From: Deltaproteobacteria bacterium
Lineage (GTDB): Bacteria; Desulfobacterota; Binatia; UBA9968; JAJDTQ01
Assembly: GCA_026712905.1 (NCBI GenBank)
Contig: JAPOPM010000175.1
Location: 4,419-68,418 of the forward strand
Length of the DNA stretch: 64,000 nt
Reading direction: 5' to 3'
The position numbers were made by a program, and so were the translations under genes. A model generated the notes under the pieces. That model did no database searches, was not told the DNA's origin, and worked only from the letters and a program-made list of their open reading frames with translations. Below, piece after piece: positions 2,351-56,404 of this stretch; position 1 is the stretch's first letter; each line of letters begins with the position of its first letter.

Positions 2351-2374
2351 CACGCATCCTCCTGCCCGCTTGTC

Positions 2375-3367: not shown

Positions 3368-4203
3368 GGCGCGAGTCTTCCTTTCAGTTCCTGAACGGCG
3401 CCGGCGGCGATGTCGGGCGGGAAGCGCAACTGGTGCGCGATCATCCCTTCCAGGAAGGACACGCCCTTCCCGACGAGGGTCTCCGCGATCAGGAAGCTCG
3501 GTATGCCCTTGGTTCCCCGCGCCGCGGCGAGGGCATCCAACAGGGCCGCCAGGTCGTTGCCGTCCACCCTGCTCACCGAAAACCCGAAACTCTCCATCTT
3601 GCCGGCAATCGGCTCCAGCGTGAGGATGTTGTCCACATTTCCTTCGGACTGCATTCGATTGGAGTCGAGAATAAGGCACAGGTTGTCGAGTTTCCACGAG
3701 CCCGCGGTCATCGCCGCCTCCCAGACCTGACCTTCCTGCATCTCGCCATCGCCCAGGACCGCGTAGACGCGCGCGGACCTGCCCTGCCGCTTGAGCGCCA
3801 TGGCCGTGCCGACGGCAACGGACAGTCCCTGGCCGAGGGAACCGCAGGTCGCCTCGACGAACGGCCCCACCCGCTCCGAGGCGTTCGTCTCCAGCTCCGC
3901 GCCGTCCTGGCAGTAGGTCGCGAGACGGTCCGTCTCGAAGAATCCGCGTTCGGCCAGCGCGGCGTAGAAAATCGCGGTGTTGTGCGCCGTCGTCAGGAAG
4001 ACCCGGTCGCGGTCCGGCCACGTGGGATCGGACGGGTCCAGCCGCGCTTCGGCGAAATAGAGCGCCGTGAAGATATCCGCCGCGCCCAAGCCCTGCTGAA
4101 CATAGCCTTGCCCCAGAGGGGCGACCATCTCGACCACGTGCAGGCGAAGTGTCGCGGCAATCCGTTCCAGCACGGCGATGTCTGTAGTGCGGATGTCTGT
4201 CAT
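3364..4203 (-). CDS. Transketolase, N-terminal (ThDP-binding) subunit
   Basis: 279-aa ORF; GDGEMQEGQVWEA ThDP-binding motif; GGGAGG ribosome-binding site upstream of the ATG at 4201-4203. Confidence 0.85.
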   Translation of the reverse strand: MTDIRTTDIAVLERIAATLRLHVVEMVAPLGQGYVQQGLGAADIFTALYFAEARLDPSDPTWPDRDRVFLTTAHNTAIFYAALAERGFFETDRLATYCQDGAELETNASERVGPFVEATCGSLGQGLSVAVGTAMALKRQGRSARVYAVLGDGEMQEGQVWEAAMTAGSWKLDNLCLILDSNRMQSEGNVDNILTLEPIAGKMESFGFSVSRVDGNDLAALLDALAAARGTKGIPSFLIAETLVGKGVSFLEGMIAHQLRFPPDIAAGAVQELKGRLAP

Positions 4204-4301
4204 CTGCTCCTCCCTGAACGAGCCGTATACCAGTCTAGCTCTTCAGCCCTATATACTTCAAGCGAATGCAATCGACGTCCCCGAAAGAGGACATGGCGCG
4301 G

Positions 4302-5321: not shown

Positions 5322-5362
5322 CGCGCCATCGGCCGGCACGCATTGCTCGGAGGTCCGCGCCA

Positions 5363-6430
5363 CTAGTCCGCTCTCGTGACTCCCAGCCCCGGACCCTCCG
5401 GCACGCCGAGCTTTCCGTCCACCACCTTGATGCCCGTGAACGGGTCGCCGGTGAGGGCCTCGCACTCGCCGATCTCGCAGAACTCGGACACGCCCGGCGA
5501 GCTAAGGGCCACGTGCAGCAGTGCGGCGTCGCCCACCATGCAGGCGGCGATGTTGCTCAGGCCGCAATCGGTCCCGGTGAGCGCGCACATGTCGGCGATC
5601 TGCCGCGTCTGTTGCACGCCGCCGGCCTTGAGGATGCCGGTGTTGATGGAATCGCAGGCGTTGTCGCGGATGAGCCTGAAGGCATCGTGGACCGCGCTTG
5701 CCGACTGGTCGGCTTCGATCTTGATGCTCGACTGGGCCTTCACCTCGGCGAGCGCTACGTCATGATGCCGGGACAGCGGTTGCTCGAACACCGACACCCC
5801 CAACTCGGCCATGCCAGCGGCCATGCGAATGGCGGATTTGGCGTCGAAGGCTTCGTTGGCGTCCACCTTGATGTAGATGTCCGGCCCTACCGCGTCGCGC
5901 ACCGCGGTCACCCGCGCGAGGTCTAGACCCACCTCGCCCTTCACCTTGAGCTTGATCGCGCGGTAGCCCTGGCTCACCAGCTCGCGGCACTCCCGGGCCA
6001 TCTCCATCGGCGATCCGACGCTCACCATCTTGATGACGATGATCTCCTTGCGCACCAGTCCGCCCAAGAGCACGTAGAGGGGCGCGCCGTAGCACTTGCC
6101 CAACAGATCGTACAGGGCCATGTCCACGCCGCCCTTGGCGCGCCGGTTGTCCACCATACGGAAGTTGATGAGCTTGTTCAGCCGGTTGAGCTCTTCAATC
6201 GGCTGTCCCACCAGGAGCGGGCGCATGATCTCCTCGATGGCGCACCGGACCGAAGCGGGGGTCTCGCCGGTCCTGGGAAACACGTCGATATAGCCGTAGC
6301 CGGTGTGTCCCGAGTCCGCCTCCACGCTCACCAGGAAACCGTTGGACGAGTAGAACTGATTGGTGGCGGTGATGAGAGGCTTCGTGTACGGCAACTCCAG
6401 AGCCTCGAGCTGTACGTCCGTGATCTTCAT
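5363..6430 (-). CDS. Enolase-superfamily enzyme (mandelate racemase/muconate lactonizing enzyme family)
   Basis: 355 aa; MKITDV start, KxK (AIKLKVKG), DANEAF and other metal-ligand motifs. Confidence 0.8.
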   Translation of the reverse strand: MKITDVQLEALELPYTKPLITATNQFYSSNGFLVSVEADSGHTGYGYIDVFPRTGETPASVRCAIEEIMRPLLVGQPIEELNRLNKLINFRMVDNRRAKGGVDMALYDLLGKCYGAPLYVLLGGLVRKEIIVIKMVSVGSPMEMARECRELVSQGYRAIKLKVKGEVGLDLARVTAVRDAVGPDIYIKVDANEAFDAKSAIRMAAGMAELGVSVFEQPLSRHHDVALAEVKAQSSIKIEADQSASAVHDAFRLIRDNACDSINTGILKAGGVQQTRQIADMCALTGTDCGLSNIAACMVGDAALLHVALSSPGVSEFCEIGECEALTGDPFTGIKVVDGKLGVPEGPGLGVTRAD

Positions 6431-6442: not shown

Positions 6443-8605
6443 TCAGAGAGAAGACGTGTAGTCCCCCGCGGCACACCGCACCAGCGTGTCCACCGCCAGC
6501 ACGCCCTGTCCCTCGGGCAGGACCATGAGGGGGTTGAATTCGATCTCGTCCACTTCACCGCGATAGTCCAGCGCCAGCCGAGACAGCGCCACGATGGCCT
6601 CCGCCAGGGCGGCGACGTCGGCCTTGGACCGGCCGCGGGCTCCGGCGAGCAGCGGGTAGGTGCGGATCTCCCGGATCATGTCTTGAGCCTCCGGCAACCC
6701 CAGAGGCGGAAGCCGGAACGCCACGTCTTTCAGCACCTCGGTGTAGATGCCGCCCAGCCCGAACACGAGGCAGATTCCCAGATCCGGCGTGCGCGACGTG
6801 CCGATGATGACCTCGGCGACACCCTGCACCATCTTCTGCACCAGCACGCCGTCGATGCGAGCGCCGGGCGCGTTCCTTCCCACGTCCTCCAGCAGCCGGT
6901 CGTACGCCTGCGCCACCTCCGCGGCGCTCGCCAGGTTGAGCCGCACGCCTCCGGCCTCGGTCTTGTGGGGCAAGTCCGTGGACTCCACCTTCAGCACCAC
7001 CGGAAACCCCATTTCGCCGGCGGCTTCCGCCGCCTCCTCACGCGAGCCGGCCAGGCGCTCGGGAACCATGGGGATGCCGTAGGCCCGAAGCAGCCGCCGT
7101 ACGGTGGCGTGGGAGGCCTCGCCCCCGGCGAGGAGCGGACGCAGCGCCTCGGTCTCCGCCGGCTCCGCCACGGACGCCTCGGCCGCGGCGCCTGAGCGAC
7201 CCCGCGACAGCGCGAGGACGTCGCGCACCGCGCGCAGCGATTTCTCGTACTCCAGCAGCAAGGGAACCTGCAGCTCGTCGAAGAACTCGAACCAGGAGCG
7301 GTCGAGTTGCTCGCTGGCCCGGGAAAGGAACAGGAACGGTTTGCCGCCGCGCCGGAGCGCGGCCGTCGACTCCCGGTACAACTGCGTGAGCCGGTCGCTG
7401 GGACTCTTGGGCAGGTTCAGGCGGCAACAGATCACCGCGAAGTTGTCGTCGCCCATGAACGTTTCCAGGCATTCGAGATAACCGGACCGGTTCGCCCAGT
7501 GCAGTTCCTCGATGTCCAGGGGGTTGCCGTTGAAGCCCTCCTTGTCGAAATAGTTGCGCAGCGCCTCGTAGGTGGCGCCGGAGGGTTCGGGCAGGTCCAC
7601 GCCGTTGCGCTCGCAGATATCGGCGAGGAAGCTGCAATCGCCCCCCGAGATGGTGACGATGCCGACGCCGCCGGAGCCGGGCAGACGGTAGGGGTCCGGG
7701 GTCGCCACGGCCAGGGCGGTGACTTCCAGCATCTGGTCGAGGTTGTCCACCGGGATGACGCCCTTCTGCCGAAAGAGCCCGTCCCACACCGCGCCCGAGG
7801 TGGCCATGTTGCCCGAGTGCGACGCGACCGCGCGACCGCCCTTCTGCGAACGCCCGAGTCTCAGCGCGACCACCACTTTCTCCCGTTCCCGCGCAAGGTC
7901 CAGCAGGCCCGCCATCTCCTCGGGACGGCTCATGGACTCGATGACCACGACGATGACGCGGGTGCCGTCGTCATCCACCGCGGCCCGCAGGTAGTCGGTG
8001 AAGCCCGCGCCCACCTGGTTGCCCGGCGCGATGGCGTAGCGGAATCCCAAGCAACGGTCGGCGGCGGTGTTGAGGAAGAGGTTGAGCAGGCCGGCGCTGC
8101 TGAACACCGCGCTCACGGGCCCGGTGGTGAGGCGTTCGGGGAGCGGCGACGACCACAGCGCGGCGCCGCATTCGAGGGACAGATAGCCCAGGGTATTGGG
8201 GCCGGCCAGCGCGATGCCGCTCTCGCGCACGATGCGGGACAGCTCCGCCTGGTACTTCCGGCCCGTGTCATCGAACTCGCCGAAGCCCGTGGCCACGGTA
8301 AGCGCGGCGCGCACGCCCTTGGCGGCGCATTCCTCCATGACCTGCACGGTGCCGTCGCGCGGGATGGCGATGACCGCCAGGTCCACGTCGCCCGGGACCG
8401 CGCCCACGGAAGGGTGGCATGGCAGATCGAAAAGCCGCTCGTAACGCGGGTTGACCGGGTAGATGTTCTCTTTCGGGAAGCCGAACCGGAACAGGTTGCG
8501 CATGAGCGCGGCCGCGTGGGGAGCGCGCTCGGACGCTCCGATGAGCACGATGTTGCGGGGCCTGAGGAGGGCCGACATGCCGTCGGAGTTGGAAGCAGTA
8601 GCCAT
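6443..8605 (-). CDS. Acyl-CoA synthetase (ADP/NDP-forming), fused alpha/beta domains (acetate--CoA ligase [ADP-forming] family)
   Basis: 720 aa; N-terminal CoA-binding/succinyl-CoA-synthetase-like domain (VLIGASERAPH...) plus C-terminal ATP-grasp domain (GFPVVLKVES...). Confidence 0.75.
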   Translation of the reverse strand: MATASNSDGMSALLRPRNIVLIGASERAPHAAALMRNLFRFGFPKENIYPVNPRYERLFDLPCHPSVGAVPGDVDLAVIAIPRDGTVQVMEECAAKGVRAALTVATGFGEFDDTGRKYQAELSRIVRESGIALAGPNTLGYLSLECGAALWSSPLPERLTTGPVSAVFSSAGLLNLFLNTAADRCLGFRYAIAPGNQVGAGFTDYLRAAVDDDGTRVIVVVIESMSRPEEMAGLLDLAREREKVVVALRLGRSQKGGRAVASHSGNMATSGAVWDGLFRQKGVIPVDNLDQMLEVTALAVATPDPYRLPGSGGVGIVTISGGDCSFLADICERNGVDLPEPSGATYEALRNYFDKEGFNGNPLDIEELHWANRSGYLECLETFMGDDNFAVICCRLNLPKSPSDRLTQLYRESTAALRRGGKPFLFLSRASEQLDRSWFEFFDELQVPLLLEYEKSLRAVRDVLALSRGRSGAAAEASVAEPAETEALRPLLAGGEASHATVRRLLRAYGIPMVPERLAGSREEAAEAAGEMGFPVVLKVESTDLPHKTEAGGVRLNLASAAEVAQAYDRLLEDVGRNAPGARIDGVLVQKMVQGVAEVIIGTSRTPDLGICLVFGLGGIYTEVLKDVAFRLPPLGLPEAQDMIREIRTYPLLAGARGRSKADVAALAEAIVALSRLALDYRGEVDEIEFNPLMVLPEGQGVLAVDTLVRCAAGDYTSSL

Positions 8606-8663: not shown

Positions 8664-9137
8664 TCAACTCACGCCCAACCGTCCTGCCGCCGCGCGGACC
8701 GCGCGCATGATGTTGGGGTAGCCGCCGCAGCGGCACAGATTGCCCGAAAGGTACTCGCGGATCTGGTCGTCGGTGGGGTCCCGGTGTTCTTCGAGCAGTG
8801 CCTTGGCGGCCATGATGAATCCGGGGGTGCAGTAGCCGCACTGAGCGGCGTCGTTCTCGAGGAACGCCTGCTGGATCGGGTGCAGGGAGTCGCCGCCGTC
8901 CATCCCTTCCACGGTCTCCACGGCGCAGCCGTCCAGGCGCGACGCGAGCAGGAAGCACGCGCTCACCGGCCTCCCGTCCAGAAGGACCGTGCAGCTCCCG
9001 CAGGCACCCACGCCGCAGGATTCGCGGACGCTCCAGAGCTTGAGTCCGTCGCGCAGGACCTCCAGCAGGGTGTCGGCATCGTTGAGCTCCAACTCCCGCT
9101 GTTCCCCGTTCACCGTCAGGCTGATGGTACGTTCCAT
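8664..9137 (-). CDS. (2Fe-2S)-binding small subunit of a molybdenum hydroxylase (CoxS-like)
   Basis: 157 aa; CGxGxCGxC and CGYCTPG/CRCGGY cysteine motifs. Confidence 0.85.
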   Translation of the reverse strand: MERTISLTVNGEQRELELNDADTLLEVLRDGLKLWSVRESCGVGACGSCTVLLDGRPVSACFLLASRLDGCAVETVEGMDGGDSLHPIQQAFLENDAAQCGYCTPGFIMAAKALLEEHRDPTDDQIREYLSGNLCRCGGYPNIMRAVRAAAGRLGVS

Positions 9138-9334
9138 GACCTTCGCTCCGTCAACCTGTCCGCGGTGCTCTAGTGTTGCGTTTGGCCCGACACCGCTCCA
9201 GGTTCAAGCGAACCGTAGACGCTCCCAAGCCCGAAGGCAAGCTCCGTGAGCCGGACACGGCATAGCCGGGAAAAACGGCGCCGCCGCCATCACACGGTGG
9301 ATGAAATACACGGCCTGAAAGAGGGCGCGTCGAG

Positions 9335-11026
9335 TCAGCTCAACGCCTGGAGGCTCATTCTGTCGGGAACGACATCGCCCATGACGCGCACGTCCACGAC
9401 GGCCGGCAGCTTGCTCGCGAGGGCCTCCGACAAGGCGCCCTCCAGGTCGCCGCGGCGCTCCACCCGTATCCCCATGCAGCCGAACGCGCGCGAAATCGAC
9501 GCATAGTCGAGCTCGGAAAACTCCGTCGAGATGAACCGAGACTCGTGAAGCAACCGCTGATTCTCCCTGATGTACTGGAGGTTCGAGTTGTTCATGATGC
9601 AAACGGTGATTCCGGCGCCATTGCGAAGCGCCGTCTCCAGCTCCTGGATAACCATCGCGAAACCGCCGTCGCCGCACAAGGCTACGACTCTCTCGTCGGG
9701 TTTCGCCAGGGAATGCGCAATGGCGGCCGGCAGGGAGAACCCCATGACTCCGAAGCCGCGCGGCCCCATGTAGGTCCGCCCCGGTCTCCGAACTTCGAAA
9801 TATTGTCCGCCCCAGATCTGGTTGAAGCCCGAATCGCAGACAAGAACGTCTTCGGCGCTCATGGTGTTGCGCAACGCGCGAATGACCTGCAGCGGGTGGA
9901 CGGGCGACGCCTCATTGTCCCGGGCCACGGCCGAGTCGATGCCGATTTCCTCGCGCCATCGCGACGTGAGCGCGGAAGCCTCCTCCTGTTGCGAATGACT
10001 GGTGGCGAGGGCGCCGTCGGCTTCGATGATGTCCAGCATGGAGCGAAGAACGGCTTTGATGTCACCCGGCAGGGCCTGGTCCGTAAAGTAGTTGCGGCCG
10101 ATCTGGGTCGGTTCGATATCGATTTGGACGATCCGCGTCTTCTTGTCTGGAACTCGCCACGCGGCGGTGTCGACATTGGTGAACCGCGTCCCCAGGGCTA
10201 GGGCGAGGTCCGCGCCCAGAACATATTCGTTGGTGGATGGACGGCCCAACAGACCGAAGGGACCGAGGCACAACGGGTGGTCCTCCGCCAGCGTCCCCTT
10301 GCCCATGAAGGTGGTGGCGACGGGGATGCCCAGCAACTCCGCGAGTTCCCGGACTTCTTCCGTTGCGCCCGATGCGATGGTCCCACCTCCGGCCAGTATG
10401 ATCGGACGTGTCGCAGTCAGCAACAGACGCACGGCGGCGGCAACATCTTCCCTCGGCGGTGTGAGCCGGTTCGCCGGAAACCAGCCGTAGCGCTGGTCCA
10501 CCTCCTGTTCCGACGGACTGAAGCCGTGCGCACCCTTGAGCACGTCCAGCGGAAGGTTCACGAGTACGGGGCCGGGTCTGCCCGTGGTGGCGACTTGAAA
10601 AGCGCGTGCCAGGAACTCCGGGATACGCGCCACGTGATCCACGGAGAAGACCTTCTTGGTGACGGGCTTGAAGACGCCGACCTGGTCGATCTCCTGGAAC
10701 GAATCCCGTCCTCGCCAATCGGTCCGGATGTCCGAGATCAGGGCGATGACGGGGATGCCGGAGTTGGAGGCTTCCGCAATCCCGCTGATCAGGTTGGTGG
10801 CACCCGGCCCGACCGTGGCATCGCAGATTCCCACCTTGCCCGTCGTCCGCGCGTAGGCATCCGCCATGTGGGCGGCGGCCTGTTCGTGCCGAACCAACAC
10901 ATGACGAATTCCAGGTCGGCGATAGATGGCATCGTAGATGTGTGTCTGTTCGCCGGGCAATCCGAACATCATCTCGACGCCGAACCTCGTCAGCGTCTCC
11001 ACCACGGCTTCTCCACCGGTCTTCAT
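9335..11026 (-). CDS. Thiamine diphosphate-dependent enzyme (acetolactate synthase large-subunit-like)
   Basis: ThDP_N/central/C-terminal architecture and a GDGGF-type ThDP-binding motif. Start placed at the internal ATG (MKTGGEAVVETL..), which is preceded by GAGGG; an alternative start is 11053. Confidence 0.75.
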   Translation of the reverse strand: MKTGGEAVVETLTRFGVEMMFGLPGEQTHIYDAIYRRPGIRHVLVRHEQAAAHMADAYARTTGKVGICDATVGPGATNLISGIAEASNSGIPVIALISDIRTDWRGRDSFQEIDQVGVFKPVTKKVFSVDHVARIPEFLARAFQVATTGRPGPVLVNLPLDVLKGAHGFSPSEQEVDQRYGWFPANRLTPPREDVAAAVRLLLTATRPIILAGGGTIASGATEEVRELAELLGIPVATTFMGKGTLAEDHPLCLGPFGLLGRPSTNEYVLGADLALALGTRFTNVDTAAWRVPDKKTRIVQIDIEPTQIGRNYFTDQALPGDIKAVLRSMLDIIEADGALATSHSQQEEASALTSRWREEIGIDSAVARDNEASPVHPLQVIRALRNTMSAEDVLVCDSGFNQIWGGQYFEVRRPGRTYMGPRGFGVMGFSLPAAIAHSLAKPDERVVALCGDGGFAMVIQELETALRNGAGITVCIMNNSNLQYIRENQRLLHESRFISTEFSELDYASISRAFGCMGIRVERRGDLEGALSEALASKLPAVVDVRVMGDVVPDRMSLQALS

Positions 11027-11056
11027 TTGCTCGCCCTCGCTCGGCATCGGCATTTC

Positions 11057-12565
11057 CTACCCTTCGACCCCGCCGGCGTTGCGGCGCCGGAACCACGCGG
11101 TCACGGGACCCCAGAGGACCGTCAGCGCCAGCGCGGCGTAGATAAACAAGCCGATGGGCGTGTTGAAAAACTCCGCGACGCTGCCGTCCGCCACGGTCAG
11201 AGACTGCCGGAGCGAGTTTTCCAGTATCGGACCCAAAACGAAACCGATGGACAGCGGTGCGATGGAGTAACCGAGCTTTCGAACGACGTAGCCCAATATG
11301 CCGGCGGCGAGCAGAACGCCGACATTGAAGAAGCTGTTGGAAACGGCGTAGATGCCGACGAAGGACAACAGCATCACCGTGGGCACGATCACCGCCGTCG
11401 GCACCGTGATCAATCGCGCCGCGAAACGGATCGCCACGAGTCCGATGAACATCATCAGGATGTTGATGAGGAAGAGGCCGATGAAGATCGAGTACATCAA
11501 GTCCGGCCGTTCCGAGAACAGGCTCGGCCCCGGCGCCAGCCCGTGTATGAGGAACGCGCCCAGCAATACCGCCGCGGCGGGACTACCCGGAACGCCCAGC
11601 GTCAACGTCGGTACAAGCGCGCCGCCGACGGTCGCGTTGTTCGCGGTCTCCGGAGCGACGACCCCTTCCGGAATCCCGGTACCGAATCTCTCCGGCTCTT
11701 TCGAGCGCCGCTTGGCCTCGGAATAGGCGAAGAACGCGCCCACCGCCGCGCCCTCGCCCGGGATGATGCCGATCACCGTGCCGATGATCGACGAACGAAA
11801 AAGGAGCTCCTTCATTCTTCCAAGCGTTTTCAACCCGGGCAGCCTGACGGTGAGGCTCGCTTCGGTGAACTCGACCGTCTGAAGGGCGCGCTCCGCCCCG
11901 ATCAGCACTTCGGACATGGCGAAGAGCCCCACGAGAAACGGCACAAGCGGCAAGCCGTCGTAGAAGTGATAGCTGCCGAAGGTGTAGCGCTCCGTGCCAT
12001 TCAGCTCATCGAGCCCCCAGGTCGTCAGGAAGATCCCCAAGCCTCCGACCAGGAGGCCCTTGGCCAGACTCTCGCCCGCCACGCGCACCACCACCACAAG
12101 GCCGAAGACGCTGACGGCGAGGTACTCGCGCGGGCCGAACTTGACCGCCAGCTCACTGAGCAACGGCGAGATGAACGCGAGGCACACGACGCTGACCAGT
12201 CCGCCGATGATGGAGCCGGTGAGCGACAGGCCCAGCGCCTCGCCCCCGCGACCGGCCTTGAACATCTTGTGGCCGTCCTCCACCGTGGCAATGGCGGCGC
12301 CGGTGCCGGGGATTCCCACTGCGATGGCAGAGATCGAACCGCCGTAAATCGCCGCGGAATAGATCCCCAACAGCAGGATCAGCGAGGGAACCGGGTCGAG
12401 GTAGAAGGTGAAGGGCAGCGCCAGCGCGATGGCTATCGGCGGGCCGAGACCCGGCAGTATCCCTATGACCAGGCCGAGGACGATGCCGCCTATCAACAGG
12501 ACGATGCTGACCGGCTGCGTGAGTTGCGTAAGCGCAAGGATGAGAGCGTCGGGATCCGCGTACAT
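11057..12565 (-). CDS. tctA: Tripartite tricarboxylate transporter permease TctA family
   Basis: 502 aa; highly hydrophobic with typical TctA motifs (GILPGLGP, GGSISAI). Confidence 0.85.
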   Translation of the reverse strand: MYADPDALILALTQLTQPVSIVLLIGGIVLGLVIGILPGLGPPIAIALALPFTFYLDPVPSLILLLGIYSAAIYGGSISAIAVGIPGTGAAIATVEDGHKMFKAGRGGEALGLSLTGSIIGGLVSVVCLAFISPLLSELAVKFGPREYLAVSVFGLVVVVRVAGESLAKGLLVGGLGIFLTTWGLDELNGTERYTFGSYHFYDGLPLVPFLVGLFAMSEVLIGAERALQTVEFTEASLTVRLPGLKTLGRMKELLFRSSIIGTVIGIIPGEGAAVGAFFAYSEAKRRSKEPERFGTGIPEGVVAPETANNATVGGALVPTLTLGVPGSPAAAVLLGAFLIHGLAPGPSLFSERPDLMYSIFIGLFLINILMMFIGLVAIRFAARLITVPTAVIVPTVMLLSFVGIYAVSNSFFNVGVLLAAGILGYVVRKLGYSIAPLSIGFVLGPILENSLRQSLTVADGSVAEFFNTPIGLFIYAALALTVLWGPVTAWFRRRNAGGVEG

Positions 12566-12574
12566 CCGTGAGGC

Positions 12575-13036
12575 CTAGGTGAATTGAACACCGAGAAACT
12601 GGGTAAAGACGGCGTAGACAAGCCCGGTCAGAACGAGCACCGTGACGTAGATCCGAATGGAGCGGATGCCCATGGCGAGGAGACTTACGGGTCCCAGCAG
12701 AACCGCCATGGGCAAGAACCCGACGCTGAACCAGACGAGGTAGCACAAGACCGCGACGGCAAGCATGAGGAGGCCGCGCCGCGCATCCCCGGCGTCGCGG
12801 AACACCGTCCGCCTCGCGTCGTTGCCGGCGGAACCGCGCAGCGCGTACAAGACGCCCACGACGGCCGCGCACAGGGCCGTGAAGCCCAGCATCAGCTGCG
12901 GGAAGAACTTCGACGGCAAACCGGAACTTGCCAGCAATCCGGTGGTCTCGAACCCTTCCGCAAGCACGCCGAAGTAGCCGCAAGCCACGACCACAACGAT
13001 TGCAAAGACGATGTTTGCCAGACGTTGGGTCAGCAT
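12575..13036 (-). CDS. tctB: Tripartite tricarboxylate transporter TctB family small membrane protein
   Basis: About 153 aa with 4 predicted TM helices, sitting between tctA and tctC. The ATG is internal (MLTQRLANIV...); the track start at 13069 is GTG. Confidence 0.65.
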   Translation of the reverse strand: MLTQRLANIVFAIVVVVACGYFGVLAEGFETTGLLASSGLPSKFFPQLMLGFTALCAAVVGVLYALRGSAGNDARRTVFRDAGDARRGLLMLAVAVLCYLVWFSVGFLPMAVLLGPVSLLAMGIRSIRIYVTVLVLTGLVYAVFTQFLGVQFT

Positions 13037-13108
13037 GTTCGATGCCTTCGACGGGACGGCGAACGGCACCGCGCAGCCCCTGCCACGCGGCGCCGTAATG
13101 CCCTGGCC

Positions 13109-14074
13109 CTACTTGCGCAACAGGCCGAGGCTGTCGAGGATAGGCGAATAGAGGTCGATGCCGAACTGAATGTTCTTTCTCACCGCCTCCGGTCCGTGGA
13201 TCCAGTGATAGCTGACGCTCTTCGGAATTTGGGCGCGGAACTCGTCGGTGTTGAGCACTTCCATGGCCGCAAGCAGCTTGTCGATGACCTCCCGCGGGGT
13301 GCCGGCCTTCACCGCCATGCCGCCATGGACCCACACCGCCGCTTCCTTGCCCGGGAAGGCTTCACCCACGGTACGTACATCGGGGAGGTCCTTCTTGAAA
13401 AAGGCTTTGCGGTTGTTGTCGAGGATGATCAGCGGGCGCACCTTGTCGCCGTACTTGTGGATGGAAGCCACCTGCCCCACGGCTACATCCACCTGACCGC
13501 CGATCAGGCCCGCCATGGTCGCGGGTACGGTCTTGAGCGCCAGCGTCTTGAATTCCAGGCCGAATTCGCTGGCGAGCTGCACCGCGCTGAGGTTGGGCGG
13601 CGCGCCGAGGTTGTTCACGCCGATGGTCAGTTTCTTGGCCTTGGCACCCGTGATGAACTCCTCGAAGGTCTTGTACGGGCTGTCCGCGCGAACATACAGC
13701 GCGTTCGAGGCCGAAATGCCGGCCATCAGCGGTATGAAGTCCTCCAGCGGATTGTAGGGGACCTTGCGGGTCAGCGGCACGATCATGAAGCTCGGCGGCG
13801 ACCAGTTGAACAGGGTGTAGCCATCGGCCGGCTTTTCCAGGACGCTCATCGTAGCCGGGATATGCGCGCCGCCGGGTTTGTTCAAGACATTGACCGGCAC
13901 GCCGAGCTTCTCGCTGAGGGCCTTGGCATTCAGCCGGGCCATGATGTCGGCGTTTCCCCCTGCCGCGAAGGACACGACGATGGTGATGGGCTTGTCCGGA
14001 TACGCGGCCAGCGCGGCACCAGCACTGAGACCCAATGCGGCCAAAGTGGCGATGGCCATGGTTTTCAACTTCAT
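13109..14074 (-). CDS. tctC: Tripartite tricarboxylate transporter substrate-binding protein (Bug/TctC family)
   Basis: 321 aa; signal peptide followed by PDKPITIVVSFAAGGNADIMAR Bug-family motif; GGAGGGAGGA ribosome-binding site. Confidence 0.85.
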   Translation of the reverse strand: MKLKTMAIATLAALGLSAGAALAAYPDKPITIVVSFAAGGNADIMARLNAKALSEKLGVPVNVLNKPGGAHIPATMSVLEKPADGYTLFNWSPPSFMIVPLTRKVPYNPLEDFIPLMAGISASNALYVRADSPYKTFEEFITGAKAKKLTIGVNNLGAPPNLSAVQLASEFGLEFKTLALKTVPATMAGLIGGQVDVAVGQVASIHKYGDKVRPLIILDNNRKAFFKKDLPDVRTVGEAFPGKEAAVWVHGGMAVKAGTPREVIDKLLAAMEVLNTDEFRAQIPKSVSYHWIHGPEAVRKNIQFGIDLYSPILDSLGLLRK

Positions 14075-14332
14075 TATGGAGTCCTCCCTCCGTCCATTCG
14101 CAACCCTATGGCTACTAATGTGCTAGATGTATGGATCATTTCTGCTCGGTGCTCCCGTATTTGTCAACCCAAGGAGGCGCTTTTCCCGACTCTCGCCCAT
14201 GGCAGCCCATGGCTTGGAAGGCGTTTCCACCGTCGGACCGCAAGACGTTACGGTCGGACACGCTCCAAACACCCAGATTGGAAACGGAAATACAGCCAGA
14301 TCAACGAGGTGCCAGGGCGTGCCGGGGCCGGA

Positions 14333-16729
14333 TCACTTCCCCGCCGCCTTGAGCGCCTGGTGGATCCTCTCGGCGGTGAGCGGAATGTCGCGCAGGCGCA
14401 CGCCCACGGCGTCCTCCAGCGCGTTGGCCACGGCGGCGGCCACGGTCAGGGCGCCGGTCTCGCCGATGCCCTTGGCGCCGAACGGGCCGTCCTTGTGGGG
14501 CACCTGCACCACGATGGGGTGGCAGGCGGCGGGCACGTCCTTGATGGACGCGATCTGGTAGTCCAGCAGGGAACCGTTGAGGAGCTGCCCGTCCTGGAAC
14601 ACCATCTGCTCGAACAGCGTCAGGCCCAGGTGCATGGTGGCCGCGCCCACGAGCTGCTGCTCGCAGTACTTGGGGTTGATGGCGGTGCCGGCGTCGCCCG
14701 CGGCGTGGAACTGCAGCACCTCCAGGCGGCCGGTCTCCAGGTCCACCTCGACTTCCACCGCGCTGGCCGAGGCGAACCAGTACTCGGTGCACTTGTCGGA
14801 CAGGCCGGTCTCGGGGTCCGTGGGCGTCACCACGGGCTGGCACAGGCCCTCCCCCACCATGGTGGTGCCGAGGCTGCCGAACTTGGCCATGAACGCCTCG
14901 GCGACGGTCATCCCCAACTCTTCGGCGCCGCGCACGAACACGCGGCCGTCGCGCGCTTCCAGGTCGGCGGCGTCGATCTCGAGCTTGCCGGCCACCGCCT
15001 CGAACAGTTCCGCCTTGACGTTGGCCGCGGCGGTGCGCACGGCGTTGCCCATGTGGTAGGTGGAGCGGCTGCCCGCGCTGATGGTGTCGTAGGGCGTGAC
15101 GTCGGTGTCGGGCTGGACCACGTGCACCTTGTCGAAGGAGATCCCCAGCTCCTCGGCCGCGATCTGCGACAGCAGGCTCTCGGAGCCCTGGCCCATCTCG
15201 ACGGTGCTGCTCAGCACGTTGGCGCTGCCGTCGGCATTGAGGATGACGATGGCCCCGGAGATGGACGGCGTGAGCACCGCCTTGACGCCGCAGGCGATGC
15301 CCTTGCCGCGGCGCTTGGTACCCGAGACGGTTTTCCCGGGCTGCTCCGTCCCCGCCGCCTCGGTTGTCTGTTGCGCCTCCTCCGGAAGAGGCGGCTCATT
15401 GCCAGGAGCCGCCGCCGTGCTGTCCCAGCCCACGGCGTCCGCCGCCCGCCGCACCGCTTCCTTCAGCCCGCAGGCATGGACCGGCGTCCCGGTGACGAAC
15501 AGGTCCCCCTCCTCCAGCGCGTGTTCGAGCCGGAACTCCACCGGGTCCGCGCCCAGGCCCCGGGCGACGATGTCCATCTGCGAGTCGTAGGCCCAGATGA
15601 CCTGGGGCACGCCGAAACCGCGAAACGGCCCGGCCGGCGGCTTGTTGGTGTAGACGCAATAGGAATCGATGGAGACGTTGGGGATCTTGTACGGCCCGGA
15701 GGAGGTGTAGCCCGACTTGTGAACGATGCGCGGACCGATCTCGGCGAAGGCGCCCGTGTCCCAGTAGACCTCGCACTTGCGCGCGGTCATGGCCGAGCCC
15801 TTGACCGCGGTCTTGAGCTTCACCACCACGCCGTGCTTGGTGACGGTCTGGAATTCCTCCTCGCGGCTCAGGCTGTACTTGACGGGCCGGCCCGTCCTCA
15901 TGGCCAGTATCGCCACGATCGGCTCGAGCTTGTTGTAGAGCTTGGCGCCGTAGCCGCCGCCCAGATAAGGCACCCGCACCCGGATGCGGTTCATTGGCAC
16001 GCCCAGCATGCGCGCCAGCTCCCCGCGCACGAAGGACGGCGACTGGCTGGCGGTGTGGATGTTGATGCGCCCGCCCTCGTCCACGTAGGCCAGCGACACG
16101 TGCGGCTCCATGGGAACGTGCTGGGCCGGCGGCGCCGTGAACACGTCCTCGAAGATGCGGTCGGCCTCGACGAAGGCCTTGTCCACGTCGCCCTTGCGCA
16201 GCTTGTAGTGGTAGCAGATGTTGGAGCGGTCGCCGGCCTTGACGTGGGCCAGGTCCGCGAACGCTCCGGAGGGGCGGATCTCGTCGTGGACGATGGGGGC
16301 GTCCGGCTTGATGGCGTCGAGCACGTCCCGCACCACCGGCAGCGGCTCGTATTCCACTTCCACGAGCTCCAGCGCCTCCTCCGCCGCGCGCCGGTTCTCC
16401 GCCGCCACCGCCACCACCTGCTCGCCTTCGTGGCGCACCCGGTCGATGGCCAGCACCGGCTGGTCCGCGAACGCCGGCCCGTGGTAGGGCGTGATGCCGG
16501 GCATGGCGGCGATGTCCGCGCCCGTAAGCACCGCGACGACACCCGGATGGACCTCGGCCCGGGACTTGTCGATGCGCACGATGTGCGCGTGCGGGTGTGG
16601 ACTCCGGAGCACCGCCACCTGCAGCAGCCCGGGCGGCTCCATGTTGCCCACGTGGAGCGCCCGCCCTGTCACCTTCTGGACGGCGTCCCGGCGGTCGACC
16701 GGCTTGCCGACGATGGAATAGTCCGCCAC
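14333..16729 (-). CDS. Xanthine dehydrogenase/aldehyde oxidase-family molybdopterin-binding large subunit (CoxL-like)
   Basis: 798 aa; Ald_Xan_dh N-terminal hammerhead plus molybdopterin-binding domains. GTG start 9 nt after the coxM-like stop. Confidence 0.85.
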   Translation of the reverse strand: MADYSIVGKPVDRRDAVQKVTGRALHVGNMEPPGLLQVAVLRSPHPHAHIVRIDKSRAEVHPGVVAVLTGADIAAMPGITPYHGPAFADQPVLAIDRVRHEGEQVVAVAAENRRAAEEALELVEVEYEPLPVVRDVLDAIKPDAPIVHDEIRPSGAFADLAHVKAGDRSNICYHYKLRKGDVDKAFVEADRIFEDVFTAPPAQHVPMEPHVSLAYVDEGGRINIHTASQSPSFVRGELARMLGVPMNRIRVRVPYLGGGYGAKLYNKLEPIVAILAMRTGRPVKYSLSREEEFQTVTKHGVVVKLKTAVKGSAMTARKCEVYWDTGAFAEIGPRIVHKSGYTSSGPYKIPNVSIDSYCVYTNKPPAGPFRGFGVPQVIWAYDSQMDIVARGLGADPVEFRLEHALEEGDLFVTGTPVHACGLKEAVRRAADAVGWDSTAAAPGNEPPLPEEAQQTTEAAGTEQPGKTVSGTKRRGKGIACGVKAVLTPSISGAIVILNADGSANVLSSTVEMGQGSESLLSQIAAEELGISFDKVHVVQPDTDVTPYDTISAGSRSTYHMGNAVRTAAANVKAELFEAVAGKLEIDAADLEARDGRVFVRGAEELGMTVAEAFMAKFGSLGTTMVGEGLCQPVVTPTDPETGLSDKCTEYWFASASAVEVEVDLETGRLEVLQFHAAGDAGTAINPKYCEQQLVGAATMHLGLTLFEQMVFQDGQLLNGSLLDYQIASIKDVPAACHPIVVQVPHKDGPFGAKGIGETGALTVAAAVANALEDAVGVRLRDIPLTAERIHQALKAAGK

Positions 16730-16738
16730 GCGATTACC

Positions 16739-17596
16739 TCACGACGCCGCCAAGGCGCTGAGCGTCCGCTTGATCCAAACCCGGGTCATTTCGCGCTTGT
16801 AGTCCGCGCTGCCGCGCAGGTCCGACACCGGGGAAATCTGCGGGTCGACGACGTCGCACACCGCGTCCCAAAGCTCTTCCGAACAATGCTCCCCACGGAA
16901 CCGGTCCAGCCCGGCGGCCAAGAGCGGCGCTTCCGCCACGCCGCCGAGGCCCAGCCGAAGCTCCCCAACGTCATCCCCATCCAGGGACAGCAACGCCGCC
17001 ACCCCGATGCACGGCCAGTCGTTGGCCGAGAGCGAGCTGAACCGCGAATACGCCGTCCGGGCCGCCGCGTCCAGGTGCGGCACGTGCACCTCCACCACGA
17101 TCTCGCCCGGCTCCAGCACCGTCTCGTACATGCCGCGGTAGAAGTCCTTGAGCGGGACCAGCCGCGTGCCCTCCCCCTTGGCCAGGACCACCTCCGCATC
17201 GAGAACCAGAAGCGCCGGCGGCGGGTCGAGCCGGTAGTCCGCATGGGCCAGATTCCCGCCCACGGAAGCCGTCTCCCGGATGCGCACGTTGCCCACGTGG
17301 CTGAACGCCTGTGCCAACGCGGGCGCACGGCGCTGCACCAGCGGCGAGCGCTCCACCGACCGGTGCGTTGCCATCGCGCCGATGCTCAGGCCATCGTCGT
17401 TGTCGGTGATTCGTTCGAGCCCCGGAATCGACTGCAGGTCCACCAAATGGGAGAAGCGCAACGCCCGCTGCTTCATCAGGATCACGAGCGTCGTGCCCCC
17501 GGCGATGGCCCGCGCCTCGTCGCCGTGTTCGAGAAGCATCTCGCTGGCTTCAGCCACGGAGCCGGGTTTCAGCAGGTCGAAAGCGGGAATGGTCAT
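16739..17596 (-). CDS. FAD-binding medium subunit of molybdenum hydroxylase (CoxM-like)
   Basis: FAD_binding_5/CO_deh_flav_C motifs (AIAGGTTLV). Start at the internal ATG (MTIPAFDLL); the track start is TTG. Confidence 0.8.
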   Translation of the reverse strand: MTIPAFDLLKPGSVAEASEMLLEHGDEARAIAGGTTLVILMKQRALRFSHLVDLQSIPGLERITDNDDGLSIGAMATHRSVERSPLVQRRAPALAQAFSHVGNVRIRETASVGGNLAHADYRLDPPPALLVLDAEVVLAKGEGTRLVPLKDFYRGMYETVLEPGEIVVEVHVPHLDAAARTAYSRFSSLSANDWPCIGVAALLSLDGDDVGELRLGLGGVAEAPLLAAGLDRFRGEHCSEELWDAVCDVVDPQISPVSDLRGSADYKREMTRVWIKRTLSALAAS

Positions 17597-17680: not shown

Positions 17681-18022
17681 TCACGGCGCCGCACCGGCTC
17701 TGCCCGGCGGGAGCTTGGTGTCCGCCATGACTTCCACCGACAGCCTCAGCCCAAGGCTCTCCAAGACAGCCTCAAGAGTAGAGAAACGGGGATTGCCCTT
17801 CCGCGACAGCGTCCGATAAAGGCTCTCACGGCTCAAGTGCGTATCCTCCGCGAGTTGTCTGATGCCGCGGGCTTTCGCCACATCGCGCAGCGCCAACAGG
17901 AAGACATCCGATCCGATTCCGGACCTGTCTTCAAGAGCAGCGGTCAGATAGGCCGCAGCTTCCGCAGGGTCCTGAAGGTCTTGATGGAGGATGTCTTCGT
18001 AGGGAACCGTTCGTCTCGCCAT
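17681..18022 (-). CDS. higA: Addiction-module antidote protein (HigA-like HTH antitoxin)
   Basis: 113 aa; matches the 'putative addiction module antidote protein' family. Lies 4 nt downstream of the toxin gene in a toxin-first order. Confidence 0.7.
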   Translation of the reverse strand: MARRTVPYEDILHQDLQDPAEAAAYLTAALEDRSGIGSDVFLLALRDVAKARGIRQLAEDTHLSRESLYRTLSRKGNPRFSTLEAVLESLGLRLSVEVMADTKLPPGRAGAAP

Positions 18023-18026
18023 ATGC

Positions 18027-18359
18027 CTACCCTCCGAGATAGTCCGCCCAATACTCCTGAGCCTTCCTTATATCTTCCGTCTGGGTCCTCTTGGTTCCGC
18101 CGGACAGCAGGAGGATGAAACGGGGCCCATCCTGTCCAATATACACCCGATAACCCGGACCAATATCCACACGCAGTTCCAACACACCACCACCCACAGA
18201 CTTGTAGTCACCGAGATTGCCCAAGCGAAGTCGTGCAATCCTGACCCGAATACCGTTTCGCGCCCTTCGGTCCCCGAGATGCCGCAGCCAGTCCGCGAAC
18301 GGGGCGGCCCCGTCTCGCGTCACATACGCCACAACCTGTCGGAGACGTGTCTCACCCAT
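18027..18359 (-). CDS. higB: Addiction-module killer protein (RelE/ParE-superfamily, HigB/Gp49-like toxin)
   Basis: RARxRIxxRIxRLxLGNLGDxKxVGxGVxELRxxxGPGYRVY pattern typical of this family. ATG at 18357-18359; the track start at 18392 is TTG. Confidence 0.7.
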   Translation of the reverse strand: MGETRLRQVVAYVTRDGAAPFADWLRHLGDRRARNGIRVRIARLRLGNLGDYKSVGGGVLELRVDIGPGYRVYIGQDGPRFILLLSGGTKRTQTEDIRKAQEYWADYLGG

Positions 18360-18501
18360 ACCGCATGGTAGCGCATAGGCTACTTTTTGCAACCTTTGAC
18401 GGGGAGCGGGTCAATTCAAACCCGAGTGTGGCTGCATCGCCCTTACCTCCAACGAAACCCGCCTTGCCGTGCCACCCGCGCACTGCAAGAATGAAGCCCT
18501 C

Positions 18502-56401: not shown

Positions 56402-56404
56402 GGC

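Follow-up and report, generated by a model that had tools for sequence, protein, structure and literature searches.

Genes for three-subunit molybdenum hydroxylases of the XDH family are non-contiguous in the pAO1 nicotine (nic) cluster of Paenarthrobacter nicotinovorans. Here, for the ketone dehydrogenase (PDB 7dqx), a figure legend lists the gene order as kdhL, pnh, kdhMS (PMC10494377). A single gene intervenes, it serves the same pathway, and it is the L gene that lies apart from M and S.

Two other systems offer points of comparison. In the hmfABCDE cluster, a Mo-dependent dehydrogenase of three subunits is grouped with a hydrolase and with a CoA synthetase, HmfD, that is AMP-forming. The furoate pathway that these genes encode uses a furoyl-CoA dehydrogenase (HmfABC), a furoyl-CoA synthetase (HmfD), and a 2-oxoglutaroyl-CoA hydrolase (HmfE), with a UbiD-type decarboxylase, HmfF, in a second cluster (PMC3223595). 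The 4-hydroxybenzoyl-CoA reductase HcrABC (PDB 1rm6) also acts on a CoA thioester. Its HcrB subunit has an extra [4Fe-4S] loop.

In the window (the whole stretch of 64,000 nucleotides that was analyzed), which comes from a sponge-associated member of the Binatia, genes for such an enzyme are likewise parted. Here, however, S stands apart from M and L, and the four genes between coxL and coxS (tctC, tctB, tctA, and the gene for a ThDP enzyme), which set the two 5.2 kb apart, come from an unrelated module. All genes from coxM through the sulfatase gene lie on the minus strand, in the order coxM, coxL, tctC, tctB, tctA, ThDP enzyme, coxS, ADP-forming acyl-CoA synthetase (acs), MR/MLE enzyme, alpha/beta-hydrolase, split transketolase, sulfatase (Table 1). 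The reading preferred here, to which we would assign about three chances in four, is that two independent catabolic modules, A and B, have had their halves interleaved on one strand as A1-B1-A2-B2, and that the cox genes are split because of this.

Table 1. Features of the gene string in the window, with gene orders of the stand-alone module B loci.
Feature	Module	Positions	Strand	Support or remark
Toxin-antitoxin pair		17681..18392	-	Directly upstream of coxM; 5' boundary of gene string
coxM, FAD subunit, XDH/CoxMLS-family molybdenum hydroxylase	A1	16739..17596	-	Pfam FAD_binding_5 (6.5e-51), CO_deh_flav_C
coxL, molybdopterin subunit	A1	14333..16729	-	Pfam Ald_Xan_dh_C, MoCoBD_1 (3.3e-73), MoCoBD_2 (2.2e-66)
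Left junction spacer, coxL stop to tctC start		14075..14332	-	258 nt
tctC, periplasmic binding protein, tripartite tricarboxylate transporter	B1	13109..14074	-	Pfam TctC (1.4e-30)
tctB	B1	12575..13036	-	Pfam TctB; 153-aa gene call taken from identical contigs
tctA	B1	11057..12565	-	Pfam TctA (6.9e-144)
ThDP-dependent enzyme, acetolactate-synthase-like family	B1	9335..11053	-	Pfam TPP_enzyme_N, M, C
Right junction spacer, ThDP stop to coxS start		9138..9334	-	197 nt
coxS, 2x[2Fe-2S] subunit	A2	8664..9137	-	Pfam Fer2_2 (4e-34), Fer2
acs, ADP-forming (NDP-forming) acyl-CoA synthetase, fused alpha/beta	A2	6443..8605	-	Pfam CoA_binding_2, Succ_CoA_lig, ATP-grasp_5
Enolase-superfamily MR/MLE enzyme	A2	5363..6430	-	Pfam MR_MLE_N, MR_MLE_C
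Alpha/beta-hydrolase, YheT-like	A2	4302..5363	-	Pfam Abhydrolase_1; NCBIfam PRK10985 (147 bits)
Third junction spacer, hydrolase stop to tktN start		4204..4301	-	98 nt; conserved in L081
tktN, split transketolase N-terminal (ThDP-binding) subunit	B2	3364..4203	-	Pfam Transketolase_N
tktC, split transketolase C-terminal subunit	B2	2375..3367	-	Pfam Transket_pyr, Transketolase_C
Sulfatase	B2	845..2353	-	Pfam Sulfatase (4.1e-55)
Second MR/MLE gene, partial, runs off window	B2	1..812	-	Pfam MR_MLE_N, MR_MLE_C
L080	Stand-alone B			FGE / tctCBA-sulfatase-ThDP
L082 and L170	Stand-alone B			GntR / tktN-tktC-tctCBA-(sulfatase)-ThDP-(sulfatase)
L085	Stand-alone B			GntR / tctCBA-ThDP-tktN-tktC / FGE
L087	Stand-alone B			tktN / GntR / tctCBA-sulfatase-ThDP
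L168	Stand-alone B			tctB-tctA-sulfatase-ThDP
L169	Stand-alone B			ThDP-tctB-tctA-sulfatase-MR/MLE / GntR

Module A comprises coxM-coxL-coxS, acs, the MR/MLE enzyme, and the alpha/beta-hydrolase (whose start codon is uncertain, at 5321 or 5363). Its canonical form is found in marine and sponge-associated Candidatus Binatia (L001-L025, L049, L055, L058, and L061), where orthologous genes share the upstream flank of the window. Amino acid identities to these relatives are 83-95% for CoxL, 76-90% for CoxM, 81-91% for CoxS, and 77-95% for the MR/MLE enzyme at the same position. The canonical cluster differs in having no tctCBA-ThDP inside and neither transketolase nor sulfatase after the hydrolase. 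Among relatives with data (50 loci in all), coxS directly follows coxL in 24 of 24 close Binatia relatives (CoxL 83-95% identical) and in 26 of 26 more distant ones (CoxL 56-73% identical). The full order coxM-coxL-coxS-acs-MR/MLE-hydrolase is kept in 22 of the 24, with no transporter or ThDP gene inside. Thus, the original prediction was right to hold that contiguous M, L, and S are the norm and that an insertion parts the cox genes here; the gene content and coordinates that it gave for the split string also agree with the Pfam matches.

The flanks tell the same story. Upstream of coxM, the toxin-antitoxin pair (the antitoxin matches Pfam dnstrm_HI1420; the toxin ORF has no Pfam match, its role being taken from position) stands at the same place in several relatives, and the divergent HlyD/AcrB efflux genes beyond it complete a flank syntenic with the canonical cluster. 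At the other end, homology to canonical relatives stops at about 4326, near the hydrolase stop codon. These flanks thus agree with insertion into module A.

What, then, does the parted enzyme do? CoxL carries an XDH-type loop (TNKPPAGPFRGFG), has no CODH loop AYRCSFR in its sequence, and retains the Glu of GAKGIGETG. Its nearest solved chain is the alpha subunit of 4-hydroxybenzoyl-CoA reductase (1rm6_A, 315 bits), and KdhL is among the closest solved relatives (250 bits). All scores against HcrABC, however, fall below the NCBIfam equivalog cut-offs (alpha 493 versus 995, beta 161 versus 405, gamma 158 versus 258). CoxM, with 285 amino acids and only three Cys, is without the [4Fe-4S] insertion of HcrB. 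Together, these features point to an enzyme of the oxidative hydroxylase type. The hmf cluster shares the logic of module A as a working analogy, not as membership; module A differs in its ADP-forming CoA synthetase, its alpha/beta-fold hydrolase, and its MR/MLE enzyme, and in relatives of the window a decarboxylase of the UbiD family lies next to it together with a carboxylate transporter.

Purifying selection still acts on coxM, coxL, and coxS, with dN/dS of 0.08-0.19 versus canonical relatives. The displaced coxS (0.11-0.17) resembles coxL and coxM in this respect, and its product keeps all eight ligand Cys (positions 41, 46, 49, 61, 100, 103, 135, and 137). It is the orthologue of the coxS that adjoins coxL in relatives, and is therefore the true partner of coxM and coxL. 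The window does hold another 2Fe-2S subunit gene, at 56450-56890, which might be proposed as the partner instead, the split enzyme being left to decay. Its product, however, is just 46% identical, and it belongs to a complete S-L-M cluster of its own (53182-56890). Set against the intact cysteines, the selection on coxS, and the far higher identity of the displaced CoxS to its coxL-adjacent counterparts, both forms of this proposal are highly improbable.

Module B consists of tctCBA, the ThDP enzyme, the split transketolase, the sulfatase, and the second MR/MLE gene, to which a GntR/UTRA regulator is normally added. No published description of it was found in the literature. Seven stand-alone loci (L085 with L086, and L170 with L171, each counted once) occur in sponge-associated MAGs, two of them attributed to non-Binatia MAGs. 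Among these loci, every B gene of the window has orthologues, with amino acid identities of 58-91%. Unlike the window, they are compact and regulator-bearing, none of them has cox genes, and their gene order differs by genome. A GntR regulator usually accompanies them; none is encoded inside the 64 kb window. In other genomes, IS elements or Abi genes lie beside B modules.

Both halves of module B in the window match these loci. In B1, identities are 71-87% for TctC, 82-91% for TctA, and 66-84% for the ThDP enzyme, whose homologues lie in cox-free modules and which scores under all NCBIfam cut-offs (ALS 473 bits versus 538, Xsc 338 versus 620). In B2, they are 68-71% for the tktN product, 75-80% for the tktC product, 61-64% for the sulfatase (to that between tctA and ThDP in L080, L082, and L087), and 84% for the second MR/MLE enzyme (to the gene after the sulfatase in L169). 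The B genes have slightly lower GC3 (0.79-0.88) than the A genes (0.84-0.95). Elsewhere A occurs without B, and B without A; the window therefore reads A1-B1-A2-B2.

Such a layout might, of course, be an assembly chimera in which two genomic regions were fused. Chimeric joins are possible in metagenome-derived sequence, and no repeat, IS element, integrase, or target duplication marks the junctions, which leaves a biological insertion without the junction repeats that would explain it. An artefact is nevertheless rejected because the window is matched at 99.95-100% identity, over both the coxL-tctC and ThDP-coxS junctions, by eight independent metagenome contigs. Three assembly sources and no fewer than six independent samples are represented (including JGI 3300027951, 3300027386, 3300002222, 3300002160, and 3300002151, ENA ERZ27241797, and Logan SRR6214543). 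Contigs L172, L173, L177, and others match the left junction spacer at the same 99.95-100%, and the identical TctC protein is found on 17 contigs. Further, a diverged lineage, L081, with just 85-92% DNA identity and a dS of 0.32, has both right-hand junctions (ThDP-coxS and hydrolase-tktN); its TctA is 98% and its tktN product 89% identical to those of the window. The chimera reading is effectively refuted, and the split layout is real and stable. Selection for linkage could be one reason why two lineages have kept it over a dS of about 0.3.

The interleaved order might instead be ancestral, with contiguous coxM-coxL-coxS arising through precise loss of tctCBA-ThDP. This would fit the fact that, by amino acid distance in the A2 genes, L081 and the window do not clearly group as exclusive sisters. 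At synonymous sites, however, the two are reciprocal nearest neighbours. Contiguity, moreover, holds throughout the 50 loci, the distant homologues included, and extends to outgroups that are 37-46% identical, Streptomyces and Thermomicrobiales among them. The start of coxS even overlaps the 3' end of coxL in six close relatives, and such coupling is unlikely to be restored once a deletion has occurred. Ancestral interleaving is thus very doubtful, and the interleaving is specific to the lineage.

The junctions themselves bear signs of two modules. The module junctions coincide exactly with the three longest intergenic gaps (258, 197, and 98 nt). CTAG is rare, with 16 sites observed versus about 200 expected (a depletion of about 12-fold), and one of these sites lies in each gap; TCTAG/CTAGA occurs at only five places, three of them in the junction spacers, which total 553 nt. 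In the left spacer, homology to relatives stops immediately past the coxL stop codon, and TTGACA is followed 34 nt on by a TCTAGC site (CTAG at 14123), resembling the regions upstream of tctC in stand-alone B modules. In the right spacer (CTAG at 9170), a block of about 62 nt (window positions ~9185-9246) is 95% identical to L081, and only the last ~18 nt (GTTGACGGAGCGAAGGTC), with the ribosome-binding site, match relatives, namely those with an expanded coxL-coxS spacer. The third spacer, upstream of tktN, holds an operator-like site, GTATACCAGTCTAG, at 4225-4238. In the 64 kb window, this is the sole match to the motif GTANNNNNRTCTAG (0.03 expected); L082 and L170 each carry two copies, upstream of tktN and tctC. 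The stand-alone modules thus share with the window an operator-like motif upstream of tktN; the operator-like match upstream of tctC is loose.

On the preferred reading of two interleaved modules, module A would be the ancestral cluster, passed down vertically in marine and sponge-associated Binatia. For module B, which is compact, shuffled in its order, and shared at 60-91% amino acid identity among sponge-associated bacteria apparently belonging to several phyla, horizontal acquisition is most likely. A piece of 5.2 kb, B1, made up of the upstream region, tctCBA, the ThDP gene, and about 180 nt of downstream DNA, would have entered the coxL-coxS spacer, already a variable site among canonical relatives (overlapping, or a spacer of up to 430 nt). 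B2, the remainder, would have come to lie directly after the last module A gene; three breakpoints would be needed. With its own ribosome-binding site and ATG retained, coxS would be translated either off a long transcript that reads through the insert or off one started by a promoter inside it, and the enzyme would still function as a CoxM-CoxL-CoxS heterotrimer.

Co-transcription of the whole string is possible, given that its genes share one strand and that the junction spacers have no terminator-like sites and no unusual RNA structure (folding z-score +0.49 for the right spacer). The modules may have separate promoters. Operator-like and promoter-like motifs lie in the spacers at 14.1-14.3 kb and 9.1-9.3 kb; a promoter scan gave no consensus sigma-70 site in 800-19500.

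Here the original prediction went further. It suggested a single long operon for a novel pathway: TctABC would import an organic acid or a heteroaromatic compound, the Mo-hydroxylase would oxidize it, and ThDP and CoA steps would follow. Carried from coxM through to the sulfatase, this reading would have the ThDP, CoA-ligase, MR/MLE, hydrolase, transketolase, and sulfatase steps complete the breakdown. The shared orientation, the short gaps, and the lack of terminator-like sites at the junctions accord with this, as does the persistence of the arrangement under purifying selection in two separated lineages. In 13 canonical relatives, a convergent UbiD/TTT/EamA unit lies downstream of module A, which makes a carboxylate substrate with TTT uptake plausible, and the CTAG site upstream of coxS could bring coxS-acs-MR/MLE-hydrolase under control of the regulator of module B. 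Against this, however, at the same locus 22 relatives have A and lack B, and the ThDP, TctCBA, transketolase, and sulfatase genes form a separate module without A in all seven stand-alone loci. Nor would a purpose-built operon be expected to have B cut in two around A2. The largest gaps lie at the module borders, and the operator-like site upstream of tktN is retained. A unified pathway is thus unlikely; of the earlier interpretation, the insertion and the norm of contiguity stand, and the single pathway is not supported.

Most likely, each module has a substrate of its own. That of module A may be a (hetero)aromatic carboxylate processed in the form of its CoA thioester; that of module B may be a sulfated organic acid that the TTT transporter brings in. 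The interleaved order is a rare arrangement of genes whose kinds are already known, and the split appears to be the outcome of ordinary shuffling of the genome, not the mark of a single new pathway.

From position 1 to 18.4 kb, the window (GC ~66%) carries an unbroken run of minus-strand genes. Pfam scans confirmed, at the coordinates listed below, every gene that the original prediction had named there, with the tripartite tricarboxylate transporter genes tctC, tctB and tctA matching PF03401, PF07331 and PF01970, all above gathering cut-offs. Upstream (5') of coxM come a toxin-antitoxin pair and then divergent HlyD/AcrB efflux genes.

Genes of the minus-strand run (window positions)
Feature	Position	Strand	Basis
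coxM	16739-17596	-	Pfam
coxL	14333-16729	-	Pfam
tctC	13109-14074	-	Pfam
tctB	12575-13036	-	Pfam
tctA	11057-12565	-	Pfam
ALS-like ThDP enzyme	9335-11053	-	Pfam
coxS	8664-9137	-	Pfam
ADP-forming acyl-CoA synthetase (acs)	6443-8605	-	Pfam
MR/MLE enzyme	5363-6430	-	Pfam
alpha/beta-hydrolase	4302-5363	-	Pfam
split transketolase (tktN, tktC)	3364-4203 and 2375-3367	-	Pfam
sulfatase	845-2353	-	Pfam
additional MR/MLE gene, cut off by window start	812 down to 1	-	Pfam

The split arrangement, with coxS apart from coxM and coxL, is real. In JGI, ENA and Logan assemblies, eight contigs of different sample origin match the window at 99.95-100% identity, and jointly cover the coxL-tctC and ThDP-coxS junctions, up to 21 kb. 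An identical TctC protein is present on 17 contigs; an exact look-up of the window CoxL returned no record. Farther along, the window encodes an ERG4/ERG24-family (sterol-reductase-like, DUF1295) membrane protein (24326-25465, +) and a protein of 722 aa whose C-terminal domain is of the RNase_H_2 superfamily (25497-27665, -).

A CoxL scan using one genome per species delivered 77 loci, nearly all from Candidatus Binatia MAGs, among them several complete chromosomes; for some, the bin name hints at a sponge origin. When the window proteins were placed on these relatives' loci by tblastn, coxS was found directly 3' of coxL in 24 loci with CoxL identity of 83-95%, and 22 of these have the order coxM-coxL-coxS-acs-MR/MLE-hydrolase, here called module A. 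The coxL-coxS adjacency recurs in 26 loci at 56-73% identity, and outgroups at 37-46% identity also keep coxM, coxL and coxS contiguous. Contiguity of the three subunit genes, which the original prediction took to be the norm, holds in both the 24 close and the 26 more distant loci. In none of the relatives so mapped does a transporter or ThDP gene stand between coxL and coxS. On its upstream flank, the window keeps synteny with these relatives (84-92% DNA identity), and homology to canonical relatives stops at the hydrolase stop codon. No description of Binatia cox clusters or of module A was found among the papers searched.

Downstream of canonical module A in one relative (L007, 17501-22266) lies a convergent unit of UbiD-family decarboxylase, TctC, TctA, TctB and EamA transporter; 12 other relatives carry it at that place (13 in all), and the 64 kb of the window lack it. 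In a soil Binatia MAG (L042, features at 5348-9043 and 16431-18988), a CoxL homologue 67% identical has as flanking genes those for the alpha subunit of a Rieske ring-hydroxylating oxygenase, for an extradiol dioxygenase of two domains and for an NMT1-type binding protein; glycine/betaine-reductase B-like genes follow farther downstream.

The other genes of the minus-strand run have relatives of their own. Homologues of the ThDP enzyme with 66-84% identity belong to compact, cox-free gene sets, here called module B; one further homologue (75% identical, locus L083) stands alone, with neither gene set beside it.

Stand-alone B modules, in gene order
Locus	Gene order	cox genes
L080	FGE / tctCBA-sulfatase-ThDP	none
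L082	GntR / tktN-tktC-tctCBA-sulfatase-ThDP	none
L085 (gammaproteobacterial MAG)	GntR / tctCBA-ThDP-tktN-tktC / FGE	none
L087	tktN / GntR / tctCBA-sulfatase-ThDP	none
L168	tctB-tctA-sulfatase-ThDP	none
L169	ThDP-tctB-tctA-sulfatase-MR/MLE / GntR	none
L170	GntR / tktN-tktC-tctCBA-ThDP-sulfatase	none

The window tctC, tctB, tctA and ThDP genes share 58-91% amino acid identity with these stand-alone modules, and the transketolase halves, the sulfatase and the terminal MR/MLE gene match them likewise. Source names of the homologues include Acidimicrobiales, Gammaproteobacteria, Boseongicola and Rhizobiaceae MAGs. Identity between the Binatia genome of the window and the gammaproteobacterial MAG is 72-87%, a cross-phylum value suggesting that module B probably spread horizontally. 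Any such transfer is not recent, since synonymous sites are saturated between the phyla. The ThDP enzyme had no tblastn match at E<=1e-100 in a plasmid collection, a metagenome scan with the same protein returned mostly generic acetolactate synthases (36-52% identity), and no description of module B was found among the papers searched. DDE transposase genes adjoin two of the stand-alone modules (L080, 2518-3918; L085, 13783-15599); in the latter locus, an IS splits the FGE-sulfatase maturase gene. AbiEi/AbiEii genes flank the module in L168.

The gene order of the window therefore reads A1 (coxM, coxL), B1 (tctCBA, ThDP enzyme), A2 (coxS, acs, MR/MLE, hydrolase), B2 (tktN, tktC, sulfatase, MR/MLE). 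The original prediction saw in this string one long catabolic operon, serving a single pathway of import by TctABC, oxidation by the Mo-hydroxylase, and ThDP and CoA steps. Its layout and gene order are real, but module A occurs without module B in 22 relatives, and module B occurs without cox genes in the stand-alone loci. Genes that share an orientation and lie close together in a metagenome-derived genome do not necessarily make up one pathway. Comparison with about 60 related loci separates the modules cleanly, and favours the view that two independent modules have been interleaved, B having probably arrived by horizontal transfer, rather than that a new pathway has been assembled. The layout is a rare, lineage-specific gene-order variant of modest interest.

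Among the relatives (L001-L061), the coxL-coxS boundary, at about locus positions 12300-12800, is a variable site with two forms. In the compact form, found in six genomes, the coxL end and the GTG start codon of coxS overlap; in the expanded form, spacers of 20-430 nt separate the two, several with palindromic repeats. The coxL 3' end in the window is the same as that of one expanded-type relative (L004), …GGGAAGTGA, and the 18 nt 5' of the coxS ATG, including GGAGCGAAGG, match expanded-type relatives. These two matches imply that the foreign DNA measures ~5.2 kb, from just past the coxL stop to ~20 nt before coxS. The notion that the insertion removed the last five codons of coxL was rejected, as L004 has the same end with no insertion.

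A repeat search found neither direct nor inverted repeats at the three junction spacers, and neither IS, integrase nor target duplication was found at the ends of the insertion. BLAST of these spacers against those of relatives and B modules returned 13-18 nt before the coxS ATG, blocks shared with a second interleaved lineage (L081, considered below), one weak 10-nt self-match (TTCGCTTGAA), and no other matches. These matches support no claim of a target-site duplication. Tandem duplication and random loss, starting from an ancestor with the order A1-A2-B1-B2, would be a candidate origin of the interleaving; module B follows the hydrolase in none of the 22 relatives with a downstream flank.

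A ~112-bp palindromic MITE-like repeat family, with arms CGTCATTCCCGCGGAAGCGGGAATCCAGG, is dispersed over the window (19170-19281, 46809-46930, 50694-50806 and 59053-59175, with partial copies near 24150-24252, 28665-28833, 52408-52478 and 58194-58226). Copies lie in the expanded coxL-coxS spacers of L004 and L049, and the family occurs in coxL-coxS or coxS-acs spacers of L004, L049, L013, L014 and L055.

The second lineage, contig L081, is 85-92% identical to the window in DNA. Its order is tctA-ThDP-coxS-acs-MR/MLE-(AbiEii)-hydrolase-tktN-tktC-sulfatase, and its junction spacers are homologous to those of the window. Synonymous sites in 1210 codons (coxS, acs and MR/MLE together) make the two reciprocal nearest neighbours, by a narrow margin (dS 0.316; next values 0.317 and 0.352), and amino acid distance trees do not resolve a sister relation. 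A single origin of the interleaved layout fits these values, with that small margin. In L081, an abortive-infection toxin gene (AbiEii, 8393-9088) is inserted between the module A MR/MLE gene and the hydrolase. A 62-nt non-coding block in the ThDP-coxS spacer (window ~9185-9246) is 95% identical to L081, where the flanking genes are 87-91% identical; it could be a coxS promoter or other conserved element.

The module borders coincide with the three longest gaps in the string (258, 197 and 98 nt). In the 64-kb window, CTAG is ~12-fold under-represented: base composition predicts ~200 sites, and 16 occur. TCTAG/CTAGA is found at just five places, three of them within the 553 nt of junction spacers. 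Two stand-alone modules (L082 and L170) carry a conserved element, AAAGGTACAnAG(G/A)TCTAGAA, 5' of both tktN and tctC. The pattern derived from it, GTANNNNNRTCTAG, occurs twice in each of these loci, at the tktN- and tctC-upstream positions, and once in the window (4225-4238, just upstream of tktN; expected 0.03, with 3 of 100 shuffles reaching one match). Upstream of tctC, the window has GGGTTGACA, with TCTAGC 34 nt later, a looser resemblance. No GntR gene lies inside the 64-kb window; in L169 that gene comes after MR/MLE, and the equivalent place here is just beyond position 1. The gaps and putative motif sites hint that modules A and B may be separately regulated.

Between 800 and 19500, a promoter consensus scan gave no promoter-like sites, and a terminator scan gave three terminator-like sites, all intragenic and fewer than in shuffles. 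RNA folding detected no structured element in either large spacer (z-scores -0.32 and +0.49), and Rfam at gathering thresholds had no match in window positions 1-20000. Because the spacers show neither terminators nor structured RNAs, read-through from coxM is equally possible.

The divided Mo-hydroxylase appears intact. Against canonical relatives, dN/dS is 0.08-0.10 for coxL, 0.17-0.19 for coxM and 0.11-0.17 for coxS, and CoxS keeps all eight cluster-binding Cys (41, 46, 49, 61 and 100, 103, 135, 137). The original prediction had allowed that a CoxS paralogue might be the true partner. The paralogue in the window (56450-56890) is not a better one, being only 46% identical and lying inside its own S-L-M cluster. 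That second complete Mo-hydroxylase cluster (53182-56890, -) is 31-46% identical to the first and adjoined by a flavin amine oxidase gene (50850-52298, +).

CoxL has the a/b-hammerhead and two MoCo-binding domains (PF01315, PF02738, PF20256; E-values 4e-25 to 3e-73), CoxM is FAD_binding_5 plus CO_deh_flav_C, and CoxS has two [2Fe-2S] motifs by Pfam. Near the CoxL C-terminus, the conserved catalytic Glu (in GAKGIGETG) aligns to the GE(S/G) position of 1rm6_A, 8uem_A and 1zxi_B, and it corresponds to bovine XDH E1261 (PMC8305194). As judged from domains, Fe-S motifs and Glu, CoxMLS is an XDH/CoxMLS-type three-subunit molybdenum hydroxylase.

More specific assignments were rejected, CoxL falling under every NCBIfam equivalog cut-off. 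For CO dehydrogenase, TIGR02416 gave 317 bits against 991 and the active-site loop is absent: form I CoxL has AY(R/X)CSFR with the Cu-binding Cys, no AY....R motif occurs in the window CoxL, and the aligned loop, PPAGPFRGFGVPQ, is XDH-type. The closest solved relative of CoxL is the alpha subunit of 4-hydroxybenzoyl-CoA reductase, but the scores for that enzyme fall short (alpha 493 against 995, beta 161 against 405, gamma 158 against 258 bits; NCBIfam), and CoxM, which has three Cys, no [4Fe-4S] insertion and a TIGR03195 match broken into two stretches, does without the extra Fe-S loop of the reductase. Xanthine dehydrogenase XdhABC (502 against 780, 158 against 310, 173 against 217) and PucCDE (PucD 434 against 784) fail NCBIfam cut-offs as well. 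Non-contiguous order itself has a precedent in the pAO1 nic cluster, kdhL - pnh - kdhMS (PMC10494377); there, however, a single gene of the same pathway intervenes, whereas here four genes of a foreign module do.

In the furoyl-CoA pathway, Mo-dehydrogenase, CoA synthetase and hydrolase functions cluster (PMC3223595). The same three functions cluster in the window and 22 relatives, although the ligase and hydrolase families differ from those of hmfABCDE; with CoA synthetase and hydrolase as constant company, module A would resemble the furoate pathway in logic. The XDH-type loop and Glu, this company, the UbiD/TTT unit in 13 relatives, and the Rieske and extradiol neighbours in L042 make a (hetero)aromatic carboxylate, possibly as its CoA ester, a tentative candidate for the substrate. 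In module B, two ThDP enzymes and an acid-sugar-type MR/MLE occur together with a carboxylate transporter and a sulfatase, the last often accompanied by an FGE maturase; from this combination, breakdown of a sulfated organic acid is suggested with low confidence. For the ALS-like ThDP enzyme, biosynthetic acetolactate synthase (TIGR00118, 473 against 538) and sulfoacetaldehyde acetyltransferase (Xsc; NF005713, 338 against 620) were both rejected; its closest solved chain is BbmA (8x3x, 310 bits).

It is improbable that the interleaving is an adaptive regulatory capture, in which the placing of B1 between coxL and coxS, and of B2 after the hydrolase, joins A and B into a single regulon devoted to a sulfated (hetero)aromatic acid of sponge origin. 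Were it so, the GntR-type operator system of module B would control coxS-acs-MR/MLE-hydrolase, and the Mo-hydroxylase holoenzyme would need the inducer of that module in order to assemble; the acid, once taken up by TctABC, would be desulfated, the ring of its CoA ester hydroxylated in a Mo-dependent step, and C-C bonds cleaved by the ThDP enzymes.

None of these points overturns current understanding. The two interleaved modules do, nevertheless, offer an example from nature: purifying selection still acts on the genes of a heterotrimeric Mo-hydroxylase, one of whose subunit genes lies 5 kb and four genes apart. The comparison defines a conserved Binatia cluster of Mo-hydroxylase, ADP-forming CoA synthetase, MR/MLE enzyme and hydrolase, near which UbiD and a TTT transporter lie. 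It also defines a cross-phylum module of sponge-associated bacteria, described in none of the papers searched, with TTT transporter, sulfatase, ALS-like ThDP enzyme, split transketolase, MR/MLE and GntR, by which a sulfated metabolite of the host might be processed.
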